Assembly: GCA_948777935.1 (NCBI GenBank)
Contig: CAQDYY010000001.1
Span: forward strand, 404,930 to 468,929
Length of the DNA: 64,000 nt
Origin: an uncultured Clostridia bacterium
GTDB lineage: Bacteria > Bacillota > Clostridia > TANB77 > CAG-508
Direction of reading: 5' to 3'
Shown: positions 12,861 to 53,726 of the stretch, one piece after another
Layout: each line of letters begins with the position of its first letter
Numbering within the stretch: the first letter of the stretch is position 1
Translations under genes and position numbers: made by a program
Notes under the pieces: model-generated
Database searches by the model: none
Told to the model about the DNA's origin: nothing
The model's input: only the letters and a program-made list of their open reading frames with translations

Positions 12861-13290
12861 TTATTTAAATAATGATAATCTTTTTGTTATCGAATTTATT
12901 TTTTCTATTTCACCAAATGCTAATAACCCAAAATAGTTATGCTCTTCTGTATTTACTTCTTTAGTTTTTTCTAGCTGTTCTTTATAAGTATCTCCTGTCA
13001 TTGTTTCTATAAAGTCTACAAACAATATCCCTTCTTCTTTAAATTGTCTTCTAGCTTTTTTAATTTCATTATTCTTTCCACCGTAAAACTATTAAAGATA
13101 AACCTGAAATGCTTTTATGTGGCTCTTCATCTTTATCTGGAAAATCTATAAAAGACATTTTTTCTTTTGTTTCTTCATCTGCAATATTAACTAGTCCTAA
13201 TCCCATATGTGCAATTGCATTTAATGCCTTTCCTATTTCTATTTTTTCATTAATAATTGCTACAAATTTATATTTATCATTATGTACCAT
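12861..13290 (-). pseudogene. DUF2000-like small protein, frame interrupted (1-nt indel at a T4/A4 run near 13082-13088)
   Basis: N-terminal 73 aa ORF (13069-13290) continues in +1 frame as ...FYGGKNNEIKKARRQFKEEGILFVDFIETMTGDTYKEQ... to 12861. Confidence 0.45.
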
Positions 13291-13371
13291 TTTAACAGCC
13301 TCCTACGATTATTTATACATTTATAATACCTTATTTTTTCTTTTTATGCAATAGATTTTAGTTATAAAAGT

Positions 13372-13869
13372 TTAAATATTCGTTTTTTCTACATATTCTA
13401 AACACTTTTCTTCTAATTTTTTAAAATCACATATATTAAATCTTTTTCTACTTACTTCATTTAATCCTAATTTATATACTTGATTTGCTAACTTTTTAAT
13501 TTTCTCTCTATTTATATTACAATAATGTAATTCTTTTCTTAATAAAATTTGATACTTTTCATCTTCTTTAGAAAAGTCCTTTTGATTTAAGTATTTTATT
13601 GGACATGGGAACATAAAGGAAAACCTTAACGAAGATATCGGTTTTAATTCTTTTGTCTTTTTATCTTTATCCATAATTAGGAATGCAGTATGAGCCTTTT
13701 TGTTATAAGAAGATACTGGAGCGAAATAATTAAAATTATTTATTGTAAGCACTATACCACAAAAGAATTTCTTGTGTTTTTCGTAATCTATATTAGGAAT
13801 TTTGTTATCACCATTTTCTTTTAAATATTTTATATATTCACTATCTACTTCATAAAATTTTAATTTCAT
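13372..13869 (-). CDS. toxN: type III toxin-antitoxin system toxin, ToxN/AbiQ-family endoribonuclease
   Basis: 165 aa; N-terminus MKLKFYEVDSEYIKYLKE..., GIVL...Y.AP..S.KK and C-terminal CDF..LEEK match ToxN/AbiQ; preceded by tandem RNA repeats + terminator; AAGGAGA RBS. Confidence 0.8.
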   Translation of the reverse strand: MKLKFYEVDSEYIKYLKENGDNKIPNIDYEKHKKFFCGIVLTINNFNYFAPVSSYNKKAHTAFLIMDKDKKTKELKPISSLRFSFMFPCPIKYLNQKDFSKEDEKYQILLRKELHYCNINREKIKKLANQVYKLGLNEVSRKRFNICDFKKLEEKCLEYVEKTNI

Positions 13870-13888
13870 TGCAACATCTCCTTATAAC

Positions 13889-13925
13889 ATAAAAATGAGG
13901 ATTAAAACCTAAATTTTAACCCCCA
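13889..13925 (-). terminator. intrinsic terminator between ToxI-like repeats and toxN
   Basis: On minus RNA GGGGGUUAAAAU-UUAG-GUUUUAAUCCUC stem followed by AUUUUUAU. Confidence 0.65.
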
Positions 13926-13939
13926 TCTATTAAATCATG

Positions 13940-14078
13940 CTATTTTGTTTTGAGTTAGCATTAACTCGAATATATCGTTCACTATATTTTATGAGGTGTG
14001 AAACCTCGAATATATCGCTCGCCATTTTGAATTGAGCTGCGAAACACTCGAATTATGAATAGCTATTCTCTTTTAGTA
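13940..14078 (-). ncRNA. toxI: ToxI-like antitoxin RNA: ~3 tandem repeats of 40-42 nt (..CGAUAUAUUCGAG[hairpin]..AAAAU..)
   Basis: Motif AUUCGAG recurs with periods 42 and 40 nt; each unit has a hairpin with covarying stems (GAGU/GCUC, GAGGU/ACCUC, GAGUUA/UAACUC); sits between promoter and toxN. Confidence 0.7.
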
Positions 14079-14083
14079 TATTT

Positions 14084-14113
14084 ATTATACTATTTTTTTA
14101 TTCATTATGTCAA
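14084..14113 (-). promoter_or_regulatory. sigma-A type promoter for toxI-toxN (TTGACA-18-TATAAT)
   Basis: Minus strand TTGACAtaatgaataaaaaaatagTATAAT. Confidence 0.6.
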
Positions 14114-14289
14114 TGATTTTGAAAAAGTTTATATATTCTACAGCTCCCACTTATTGGTAGGGTTCACCTAATTTTAACTTCAAATAACATAGTTTTGCTA
14201 TCAAAAATTTATTTTTCTAATATTGCTGTTACTTCTATTTCAATTTTTGAACCTTGTCTTACAAATCCTCCTATTTCCCACAGCAATTT

Positions 14290-16995
14290 TTATATTTTTT
14301 TCCTGAACCGGCAAGGGCATGGGTCGTTTCTTCCTATTGTTGGCCCTTCATTTCGTACTGTTACATGTGTTTGTTCTGATTCTCCATTTAGTTCATTTAT
14401 ATTTTCTAATGAAGCATTTGTAATTCTTGCTGTTTCTGCTCTTCTTATTTCAGTTTGTTTTTGTATGTTTAATAGTATTTTTACAACATCATAATGAATA
14501 TCATATACCATTTGTTCAAACATTTCTGTTCCTTCTATACGATATTGAACAACAGGGTCTTTTTGACCATATGCACGAAGCCCTATTCCATCTTTTAGTT
14601 CATCCATTGCATCTATATGATCCATCCATTTTTGGTCTACTACTTTTAACATAACAACTCGTTCTAATTCTCTTAGTTCTTCTTCTCCAATTTCTTGTTC
14701 TTTTTCATCATAACGAGCAAGTGCTTTTTCTTTTAATTCTTTTAGTAGTTTTTGTTCATCAAATTTTGCATCTTTTAAAGCTTCAATATCTTCTAAACCA
14801 AATATTGTTCGAATTTCTTCTTTTAATGATTCTTTATTAATAACTTCTTCCATAGAATATGAATTTACTAAAAATTCTGCTAATTCTATAATCATATTTT
14901 TGATGCTATCTTTTAGACTTTGTCCATCTAATACTTGTCTTCTTTGTGAATAGATAATCTCTCTTTGTGTATTCATAACATCATCATATTGAAGTACATG
15001 TTTACGAATACTAAAGTTTCTACCTTCTACTCTTTTTTGTGCTTTTTCTACTGCACCTGAAATAATTCTAGATTCTATTGGCATATCTTCATCTGCACCT
15101 AATGTATTATATACACCTGTAATCATATCTCCACCAAAGATCTTCATTAAATCATCATCAAGACCTATATAGAATTTAGATTCACCCATATCCCCTTGAC
15201 GTCCACTACGTCCACGAAGCTGATTATCAATTCTTCTAGACTCATGTCTTTCTGTACCAATGATTTTTAAACCACCAGCAGCAATTACTTTTTCTTTTTC
15301 TTCTTTAATTTCTTCATCATATTTCTTTACTAAATTTCTAAATTTTTCTCTTGATTCTAAAATACTTTGGTCATCTGTTTCATTAAATGCCATTGCTTCT
15401 TCTATTTGTTCATCTGTGTATTTTAGCCTTTTCATTTCTTCTCTTGCAAGATATTCACTGTTTCCACCAAGCATAATATCTGTACCACGTCCTGCCATGT
15501 TTGTTGCAATAGTAACTGCTCCAAATTTACCTGCTTGTGCAATAATTGCAGCTTCTTGCTCATGGTATTTTGCATTTAATACTGAATGTGGTATTCCTTC
15601 TCTTTTCAATATTTTACTTAGTTTTTCAGATTTTTCAATTGATACAGTACCTACTAACACTGGTTGTCCTTTAGCATTACTTTCTTTTACACTGTTTACA
15701 ATTGCTCTATATTTTGCAGCTTCATTTTTATAAATAACGTCATTTTCATCATTACGTGCTACTGGTTTATTAGTTGGTATAGCAATAACATCTAAATTAT
15801 AGATTTCTCTAAATTCTGATTCTTCTGTCATAGCAGTACCAGTCATACCTGCTAATTTATCATACATTCTAAAGTAGTTTTGGAATGTGATTGTTGCAAG
15901 TGTTTTAGATTCGTCTGCTATTTTTACCCCTTCTTTTGCTTCTATTGCTTGATGAAGACCATTATTATATCTTCTTCCATACATAATTCTTCCTGTAAAT
16001 TCATCAACAATTAGTACTTCTCCGTCTTTTACCATATAATCTATATCACGTTTCATAACACCATGTGCACGTAAGGCTTGGTTTACATGGTGTACAATTT
16101 CTGAATTGTCTAAATCGTTAAAATTTGTAATACCAAAGAATTCTTCTGCTTTTTTAATTCCTTTTGCAGTAAGAGATGCAGATTTTGCTTTTAAATCTAC
16201 AATATAGTCATAGTTTTCGTTATCTTCTGCTTGTTCTTCATCTTTTATATCTTCTTCTACTATTACTTTTGCATTTAATCTTCTTACAAAATCGTTTGCT
16301 CTTTTATATAAATCTGATGAAGTATTTGCACGTCCTGAAATAATTAATGGAGTACGTGCTTCATCTATTAAAATACTATCTATCTCATCTACAATTGCAA
16401 AGTTTAAATCTCTTTGAACTGCTTGGTTTTTATATATTACCATGTTATCTCTTAAGTAATCAAAACCAAATTCATTGTTAGTTCCATAAGTTACATCACA
16501 TGCATATGCCCTTCTTTTTTCATCTGGTTCCATTCCAGAAATAGCAAGTCCTACTGTTAAACCCAAGAATTTGTATACTTTTCCCATCCATTCACTATCA
16601 CGTTTTGCAAGGTAATCGTTAACTGTAATAACATGTACACCCTTTCCTGTTAGTGCATTTAAGTATACAGGAAGTGTTGCAACTAATGTTTTTCCTTCTC
16701 CTGTTTTCATTTCGGCAATTCTACCTTGATGTAATATAATTCCACCTATTAATTGAACATCAAAATGTCTCATGCCTAATACTCTTTTAGAAGCTTCTCT
16801 TACTACTGCAAAAGCTTCTGGCAATATATCATCTAATGATTTCCCATTTTCTAATTCTTTTTTAAAATAGTTTGTTTTTTCTTTTAATTCTTCATCTGAT
16901 AATGATGAAATTTCTCCTTCGAATGCATTAATCTTGTTTACGATTGGCATTACTCTTTTTACTTCTTTTTCGCTATATGACTTAAATAGTCCCAT
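14290..16995 (-). CDS. secA: preprotein translocase ATPase SecA
   Basis: 901 aa; DEAD-like motor motifs, C-terminal Zn-binding CPCRFRKKI... region. Confidence 0.95.
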
Positions 16996-53471: not shown

Positions 53472-53545
<74 letters not shown>

Positions 53546-53622
53546 GCGCCCTTAGCTCAGTTGGTCAGAGCAACCGGCTCATAACCGGTGGGTCCAAGGT
53601 TCGAATCCTTGAGGGCGCACCA
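53546..53622 (+). tRNA. tRNA with CAU anticodon, most similar to tRNA-Ile2 (lysidine) / elongator Met
   Basis: GCGCCCTTAGCTCAGTTGGTCAGAGC...CGGCTCATAACCG...GGTTCGAATCC..GGGCGCACCA; not initiator-type. Confidence 0.8.
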
Positions 53623-53640
53623 CTTTTTTTAACTAAATAT

Positions 53641-53726
53641 GGACAGGTGGCCGAGTGGCTAAAGGCGGCAGACTGTAAATCTGTTCTCATACGAGTACGA
53701 AGGTTCGAATCCTTCCCTGTCCACCA
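53641..53726 (+). tRNA. tRNA-Tyr (anticodon GUA)
   Basis: Long variable arm, anticodon loop CUGUAAA, GGTTCGAATCC TPsiC, CCA; followed by hairpin terminator 53729-53761. Confidence 0.85.

Follow-up and report, generated by a model that had tools for sequence, protein, structure and literature searches.

The DNA analysed here is a 64,000-nucleotide stretch of contig CAQDYY010000001.1 from an uncultured Clostridia bacterium (hereafter the window), whose minus strand very probably carries, between positions 14113 and 13372, a complete and probably functional type III toxin-antitoxin (TA) cassette of the ToxIN/AbiQ family. In this cassette, the layout of which is ordinary within a described phage-defence family, a single promoter is followed by three repeats forming RNA pseudoknots, then by a leaky terminator and the gene of a ToxN ribonuclease. 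Such a locus had been proposed in a first-pass annotation of the sequence, and every element listed there is present on the minus strand at essentially the coordinates given. Plasmid homologues of the toxin are already annotated as a matter of routine under the name "type III toxin-antitoxin system ToxN/AbiQ family toxin". Absent from the first-pass annotation is a second helix (stem 2), which turns each repeat unit into a pseudoknot. The features of the cassette are the following:

14113-14108, minus strand: -35 box TTGACA of the toxIN promoter, a consensus match, unvaried in 36 related loci
14089-14084, minus strand: -10 box TATAAT, 18-nucleotide (nt) spacer from the -35 box, within the palindrome TAGTATA-N5-TATACTA (14092-14074)
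14077-14059, minus strand: 5' leader, a degenerate partial repeat (..AAAAGAGAAUAGCUAUU.. then CAUAAUUC), from direct reading of the sequence
14058-14017, minus strand: ToxI-like unit 1, 42 nt, covariance-model match of 47.3 bits
14049-14046 with 14037-14034, minus strand: stem 1 of unit 1, GAGU with GCUC
14043-14039 with 14022-14018, minus strand: stem 2 of unit 1, UUCGC with GCGAG, the A-rich loop being at 14033-14023
14016-13977, minus strand: ToxI-like unit 2, 40 nt, covariance-model match of 48.2 bits
14007-14004 with 13996-13993, minus strand: stem 1 of unit 2, GAGG with CCUC
14002-13998 with 13982-13978, minus strand: stem 2 of unit 2, UUCAC with GUGAA
13976-13935, minus strand: ToxI-like unit 3, 42 nt, covariance-model match of 44.0 bits
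13967-13964 with 13955-13952, minus strand: stem 1 of unit 3, GAGU with ACUC
13961-13956 with 13942-13937, minus strand: stem 2 of unit 3, AUGCUA with UAGCAU
13928-13886, minus strand: intrinsic terminator separating the RNA array from toxN, with its hairpin at 13928-13893 and a U-tract after it
13883-13878, minus strand: ribosome-binding site (RBS) AAGGAG of toxN, 8 nt before the ATG
13869-13372, minus strand: toxN/abiQ-family endoribonuclease gene, 165 amino acids (aa), with PF13958, PADLOC AbiQ and PDB matches

The 165-aa open reading frame (ORF), described as ToxN/AbiQ-like in the first-pass annotation, matches the Pfam family ToxN_toxin (PF13958) with an E-value of 4.8e-33 and 115 bits (gathering cut-off 25) over profile positions 1-159 of 159, and the PADLOC AbiQ profile with an E-value of 2.1e-32, no NCBIfam model being available for it. 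Compared by sequence only with solved structures, it retrieves BtToxN (4ATO, 4e-15), EcToxN (7D8O, 5e-13), PaToxN (2XD0, 1.3e-11) and AbiQ (4GLK, 1.4e-9), and this similarity to four solved ToxN/AbiQ structures leads us to regard the toxin fold as settled. Residue roles were taken from E. coli ToxN (PMC8860590). Equivalents of the fold residues F3, Y10, I11, L14, G37 and V39 are retained, and the active-site strand A49-P50-L51-T52-S53 corresponds to A50-P51-V52-S53-S54 in the window toxin, with a Ser at the position of ToxN T52, as in AbiQ (Ser51). Among the catalytic residues (Lys33, Thr52 or Ser, Ser53 and Lys55), which are conserved overall, K33 corresponds to K34, S53 and S54 align directly, and K57/K58 adjoin the Lys55 position with a one-residue indel, the Lys of BtToxN sitting at the K58 position. 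About 240 close relatives of the toxin, all with PF13958, were found in gut metagenomes. The ratio of nonsynonymous to synonymous divergence (dN/dS), determined with 21 relatives, of which 20 have an intact ORF and one (locus L003) an in-frame stop after codon 95, ranges from 0.03 to 0.11 for dS values of 0.3-2.8, synonymous divergence reaching saturation. The toxN gene is under strong purifying selection.

Directly upstream of this gene, the first-pass annotation had noticed about three tandem units of 40-42 nt. A repeat search in the window retrieved two 24-nt copies, 40 nt apart and 83% identical, and Tandem Repeats Finder, run on 13800-14300, called only a trivial 9-mer within toxN and missed the array on account of the divergence of its units. 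With a covariance model built from homologous arrays, exactly three units are recovered in the window, with E-values of 4e-10 to 5e-9 that are not independent since the window units belong to the training set, and no other site in the 64 kb. Most homologous arrays have three units as well: 36 of the 39 examined consist of exactly three, placed immediately before a toxN homologue, and an array is present in 38 related loci. Searches against Rfam gave only noise at E <= 10 over 13300-14400 (sau-13, RT-17, snoR137) and no match to the array at the gathering threshold over the whole window; the RNA array alone is thus likely to go unannotated. The consensus unit reads NAUAUAUUC-GAGU-GU-UUCGC-A-ACUC-AUAAAAAAUG-GCGAA-C, and the linker between units C-N-AUAUAUUC.

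Both helices of the pseudoknot are supported by covariation. The hairpin stems given in the first-pass annotation (GAGU/GCUC, GAGGU/ACCUC and GAGUUA/UAACUC) are correct, and the pairing of stem 1 (GAGN/NCUC) reaches 99.7% in a set of 100 distinct units (99 without one spurious match), its fourth pair being UA, UG, CG or GC. Stem 2 forms when the hairpin loop pairs with a segment past the A-rich stretch, giving an H-type pseudoknot, and each of the three window units displays it (UUCGC/GCGAG, UUCAC/GUGAA and AUGCUA/UAGCAU, respectively). Across the loci at least nine stem-2 classes occur, all of them complementary: UUCGC/GCGAA, UUCAC/GUGAA, AUGCUA/UAGCAU, AGGUUA/UAACCU, AGGCUA/UAGCCU, ACGCU/AGCGU, AGAUUA/UAGUCU, GCGCUU/AAGCGU and GUGCUU/AAGCAU are included.

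Counting stem 2 required some care. Plain MAFFT alignments set its 3' arm in different registers for two classes of units (alignment A1 for all units, A3 for the unit-3 class), and this problem remained with an N-padded structural alignment (A5) and a covariance model trained with stem 2. The helix was therefore counted in two ways, in the model alignment A2 and in our own structure-based alignment with shuffles and slides. In A2, where the stem-2 count is in register for the UUCGC/UUCAC class only and a slide of -1 catches the other class, 61 units have GC and 14 have AU at the pair 19-41. In the structure-based alignment, 92.2% of the cells are paired as compared with 74.1 +/- 0.8 in 500 shuffles, a percentage that leans high because the alignment was fitted to the helix, and cells with a double change number 153 against 35 in the shuffles, none of the 500 reaching the observed value. 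Sliding the partner by 1-3 columns lowers the pairing to 24-46%. Two results are robust without that fitting: the diversity of pair types, single stem-2 positions showing GC, CG, AU and UA, and the contrast between cognate and neighbouring partners, the loop pairing over at least 5 bp with its downstream segment in 62 of 68 cases and with the upstream neighbour in 31 of 68. The differences between units are compensatory, which indicates that the unit fold is under selection. The loops measure 1-3 nt (1a-2a), 0-2 nt (2a-1b) and 5-12 nt, A-rich (1b-2b). The comparison shows AUUCGAG, CUCA and the terminal AAA to be read as sequence, and stem 2 only as structure.

The units of a given array differ from each other along a gradient of divergence. 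Over 36 arrays, the stem-2 core of unit 1 is UUCGC in 35, that of unit 2 is UUCGC or UUCAC, and unit 3 displays ten different cores, always with a compensating partner. Stem 2 differs between units in 28 of these arrays; three different cores are found in 16 of them and a single core in only 8. Unit 1 and the linker are almost unvaried although synonymous sites are near saturation. This heterogeneity may be drift under a purely structural constraint, and we consider it doubtful that the non-identity of the three units is itself selected. If it were, it could favour folding fidelity, by preventing mispairing between the hairpin loop of one unit and a neighbouring unit before the precursor is processed, suppress the recombinational loss of repeats, give rise to antitoxin isoforms of graded affinity or stability, and make it less easy for phage-borne pseudo-ToxI decoys to neutralise the toxin. 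A more extreme non-identity within one array was observed on a C. perfringens plasmid (NZ_CP120752.1, locus L039), about 300 nt upstream of toxN, where three units have wholly different stem sequences (AAAGG../..CCUUU with UUCUG/CAGAA; AGAG../..CUCU with CCUUC/GAAGG) and AAUUC precedes each unit as well as the terminator.

The promoter, described as near-consensus for sigma-A in the first-pass annotation, matches the consensus TTGACA-18-TATAAT at 12 of 12 positions and is the sole such site in the scanned region of 1.5 kb; from the position of its -10 box, transcription would start at about 14077. The palindrome at 14092-14074 (minus strand) spans the -10 box and this likely start, and is nearly unvaried in 36 loci. 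It could be the operator of some regulator, which would be unexpected given that type III promoters are supposedly constitutive, or could alternatively reflect a mere constraint on the promoter and the initial transcribed sequence. The leader, as a whole, resembles a degenerate half repeat. Its 10-mer AAUAGCUAUU (about 14066-14057, minus strand) is a perfect palindrome, as is the version AAUUGCAAUU found in L007 and L027, and a double change that keeps the symmetry is suggestive of an RNA-RNA contact or of a site bound by a dimer. Downstream of the array, the terminator and the toxN RBS follow each other as announced in the first-pass annotation. The terminator hairpin is long and GC-poor; it is the sole terminator-like site in 13000-14500 (1 found for 0.3 expected from shuffles), and its 12 conserved pairs, 4 of them with compensatory changes among 19 loci, are just preceded by a conserved UUUAAU.

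A scan of species-representative genomes retrieved 38 related loci, all from uncultured gut Clostridia, including Clostridium sp. CAG:492. In almost every locus, the nucleotide homology to the window extends from about 14114, at the -35 box, to about 13390, some 20 nt short of the toxN stop, and secA lies upstream in only four of them, most copies being found in other contexts. From these bounds and the many contexts, the inherited unit is a cassette of about 725 bp running from promoter to toxin, and its distribution fits a mobile cassette. The claim of an insertion downstream of secA is thereby supported only in part, no empty site downstream of secA that would prove an insertion having been found. 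Close relatives occur on 3.8-kb E. faecium plasmids. Distant homologues, from E. faecium plasmids, a C. perfringens plasmid and a Clostridioides phage, likewise have units of the AAUUC-hairpin-A-rich-2b type, each hairpin being preceded in these arrays by an A/U-rich stretch (AAUUC in the plasmids of both species, AAUGUU in the phage).

Other particularities were observed in some of the related loci. In L011 (about 2880-2990), L033 (about 1440-1550), L012, L014 and L029, the toxI terminator is separated from the toxN RBS by an insert of about 100 nt; one insert (GGTTAAGTTAC..GCAAAGCAAA..GTGGCGAAGCC..) is common to L011 and L033, and another to L012 and L014. None of the inserts of these five loci matches an Rfam family, and they may be small mobile repeats. 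L010 carries, at 1882-2139, a second toxN-like frame with 33% identity over residues 3-92, about 900 nt upstream of the main cassette, and may therefore hold two type III systems in tandem.

The genes next to the window cassette were described in the first-pass annotation as a disrupted DUF2000 gene and an orphan hypothetical gene. Profile searches retrieved both ends of the former on the minus strand, an N-terminal fragment at 13290-13069 (profile positions 2-59) and a C-terminal fragment at 13025-12861 (80-133), and this split gene is either a pseudogene or an assembly error. The latter (12839-12060, minus strand) has a C-terminal Imm33 immunity-protein domain (PF09951, E-value 2.4e-13), no toxin partner being evident adjacent to it. 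Also present in the window are an Rpn-family recombination-promoting nuclease/putative transposase (18833-17952, minus strand; TIGR01784, 1.2e-49), a histidine-racemase/DapF-like ORF (11758-10910) and an ArgE/DapE-family deacylase (10908-9889), the last two being under curated cut-offs, and three tRNA genes (53472-53723).

All the features accessible in silico place the window locus in the ToxIN family, which is defined by tandem repeats followed by a terminator and then by a ToxN homologue (PMC5086642), and of which 67 loci have been published (Blower et al. 2012, NAR). It has a PF13958 toxin of about 165 aa, a tandem array upstream on the same strand as promoter and toxin, a Rho-independent terminator in between and a ToxI-type pseudoknot in each repeat. 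Both the toxin profiles and the repeat fold, which fits the ToxI template, support the toxI-terminator-toxN layout recognised in the first-pass annotation. A distinct subfamily had also been suggested there from the length and number of the repeats. This suggestion is not supported, as 40-42 nt and three copies (plus a partial one) fall inside the published ranges, which are 31-62 nt with a mean of 38.1 and 1.9-5.6 copies with a mean of 2.8, for a mean toxin length of 168 aa (PMC3401426). The ToxI template consists of nested stems with a 2a-1b loop of 1-2 nt and a variable 1b-2b loop, the latter exceeding 7 nt in Group II, where a G often stands before 2b (PMC3401426). The window clade fits Group II in the order 1a-2a-1b-2b, the short 2a-1b loop, the long (>7 nt) 1b-2b loop and the frequent G before 2b. 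It differs from the published family in its slightly longer stems of 4 bp and 5-6 bp, as compared with the "typically 3-4" reported, and in the non-identity of the units of one array.

Among characterised systems, the ToxIN of B. thuringiensis pAW63 (4ATO; 34 nt x 2.9) offers the best-scoring solved relative of the toxin and shares a Firmicute host and about three repeats, AbiQ and BtToxIN having 2.8-2.9 (PMC5086642). Its toxin is however only about 30% identical, and its 34-nt repeats are cut at A^AAAA in a single-stranded tail, whereas the A-run of the 40-42 nt window unit is located inside the pseudoknot loop. With the ToxIN systems of P. atrosepticum and E. coli (2XDB/2XDD, 7D8O; 36 nt x 5.5) the window shares the toxin fold, the catalytic K33/T52/S53/K55 motif region (APxxS) and a terminator setting the RNA:toxin ratio; as in P. 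atrosepticum ToxI, a 5' AUUC tail directly abuts stem 1a and the hairpin loop pairs with a downstream segment. In contrast to these systems, the window units are fewer and longer, the A-rich 1b-2b loop has 5-12 nt rather than 7, the linker is AUAUAUUC rather than GAAAUUC and the AA^AU site is absent from the linkers of internal units. L. lactis AbiQ/antiQ (4GLK; 35 nt x 2.8) is related through the PADLOC AbiQ profile, the Ser at the Thr52 position, about three repeats and a Gram-positive host, but its pairwise similarity is weaker than that of the ToxN structures and its repeat has another sequence and length. CptIN and TenpIN share the overall logic of a repeat RNA antitoxin, a terminator and an endoribonuclease toxin. 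Their repeat lengths of 40-48 nt and 39-57 nt (PMC3401426) overlap or adjoin that of the window array and cannot tell them apart from it, but their pseudoknot organisations are different and CptIN is a heterotetramer (PMC3401426, PMC5086642). Membership in CptIN/TenpIN was rejected since ToxN_toxin is the only significant Pfam family of the toxin, all others at E <= 1 being noise.

The functioning of the cassette can be proposed by analogy with characterised relatives, in which the terminator keeps the RNA in excess, ToxN cuts the units and the loss of transcription frees the RNase (PMC5086642, PMC8860590, PMC10853763, PMC7781912). A constitutive consensus sigma-A promoter would transcribe the leader and three ToxI-like units of about 40 nt; most transcripts would end at the intrinsic terminator and a minority would read through into the gene of the 165-aa ToxN endoribonuclease, the antitoxin RNA being consequently made in excess. 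Each unit is predicted to run from AUUC through 1a (GAGN), 1-3 nt, 2a (5-6 nt), 0-2 nt, 1b (NCUC), the A-rich loop of 5-12 nt and 2b to a final stretch of about 6 nt, folding as an H-type pseudoknot. ToxN would cut the precursor to single units, and these would remain attached to toxin monomers, head to tail, within a closed ribonucleoprotein that is inactive. Once the cassette is no longer transcribed, owing to phage-induced host shut-off or cassette loss, the unstable RNA would decay and the freed ToxN would cleave cellular and phage RNAs at A/U-rich sites, leading to growth arrest or abortive infection.

Several observations weigh against a complete and functional cassette of this kind. The HMMER alignment sets Asn56, and not a Lys, opposite the catalytic Lys55, K57 requiring a shift of one residue. 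The units are less alike than in textbook systems and escape Tandem Repeats Finder, and the array matches no Rfam family. Several related loci are decayed, with toxN truncated or interrupted and the RNA array persisting in L003, L027 and L030-L038: the first 37 toxN codons are lost in L030-L032, internal deletions affect L036 and L037, codon 96 is an in-frame stop in L003, and these cassettes, like those of L027, L033-L035 and L038, keep the array, sometimes reduced to two units or one. The cassette therefore appears to be dispensable and often lost, in a pattern expected if decay can proceed safely only when the toxin is the first part to be lost. Finally, the sole A-run of the unit is located in the pseudoknot loop, a position that fits poorly with a cut in the linker as predicted below, and the three As closing this loop before a U belong to the best-conserved columns of the alignment of units (1.4-1.9 bits).

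Rather than in phage defence, the cassette might serve mainly as an addiction module stabilising the variable region downstream of secA through post-segregational killing. We consider this possible, without favouring it, in view of the accessory or conflict-type genes nearby (the split DUF2000 gene, the Imm33-domain ORF and the Rpn-family nuclease), the many contexts in which the cassette occurs and the very small size of the E. faecium plasmids carrying close relatives. The two roles are however not exclusive, ToxIN(Pa), ToxIN(Ec) and AbiQ all aborting phage infection (PMC5086642, PMC10853763, PMC7781912), and the frequent decay of toxN in related genomes argues against a strong addiction. 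An abortive-infection phenotype has been demonstrated for a part of the family only.

The position at which the precursor is cut can be predicted from the array. The cut is probably made immediately before the conserved AUUC, within the AU-rich linker of fixed length, rather than in the A-run. This is favoured by the covariation, according to which the pseudoknot spans the A-run in cis, by the solved ToxI RNAs, which are intramolecular pseudoknots with single-stranded tails, by the fixed length of the linker and its AUUC end resembling the tail of P. atrosepticum ToxI, as opposed to an A-rich loop varying from 5 to 12 nt, and by the A/U-rich stretch kept ahead of each hairpin in distant arrays. 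All characterised ToxN/AbiQ enzymes nevertheless cut in A-runs (AA^AU, GAAA^U, A^AAAA, A^AAA; PMC5086642, PMC8860590, PMC7781912). With such a specificity, ToxN could cut inside the long-loop A-run (..AAAA^U..) and release a circularly permuted unit composed of 2b of unit n-1, the linker and hairpin n, stem 2 then existing only in the precursor or joining neighbouring fragments in trans. The conservation of the loop-terminal As and U agrees with this alternative, and these As may represent either the true cleavage site or tertiary A-minor contacts. We nonetheless judge it unlikely, as the covariation connects each hairpin loop with the sequence that follows the A-run and every pseudoknot would be split by the cut. 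Moreover, the pseudoknot is intramolecular with single-stranded tails in all solved complexes (PMC5086642, PMC3401426, PMC8860590), and minor-groove triples between stem 1 and an A-rich third loop are common (PMC5086642).

That the locus is an inactive remnant, formed of an orphan toxin gene, a decaying leader and repeats no longer functional, could be suspected from the dissimilarity of the units, to which Tandem Repeats Finder is blind, from the broken DUF2000 neighbour and from the truncated toxN of many related loci. It is very improbable: in the window, ORF, terminator and RBS are intact and the promoter is perfect, the unit differences are compensatory with a fold under selection, and both the low dN/dS of toxN and the near invariance of unit 1 and linker at synonymous saturation speak against it. 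It is scarcely credible that the repeats, placed like riboswitch leaders in the 5' untranslated region upstream of a terminator, act in cis as an attenuator or riboswitch-like control of toxN translation and not as a trans-acting antitoxin, because no Rfam family is matched even at E <= 10, type III TA systems are defined anatomically by just such an arrangement of three tandem, independently folding pseudoknots before a PF13958 toxin (PMC3401426, PMC5086642), and a search for conserved pairings of unit 3 with the toxN leader, whether antiterminating or sequestering the RBS, left the terminator hairpin as the only one present in the consensus fold.

The cassette leaves unchanged the current view of how type III systems work, and the mildly unusual aspect of its clade is the heterogeneity within arrays. 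In terms of annotation, it reveals a clade widespread in gut Clostridia, the RNA half of which is reported by no ORF track or Rfam model and is cleanly found by the covariance model built from homologous arrays. Because the repeats within one array differ by compensatory changes, this clade amounts to a mutagenesis experiment performed by nature. It lends independent support, from a member of Group II, to the pseudoknot template of ToxI, which represents a modest but real scientific gain.

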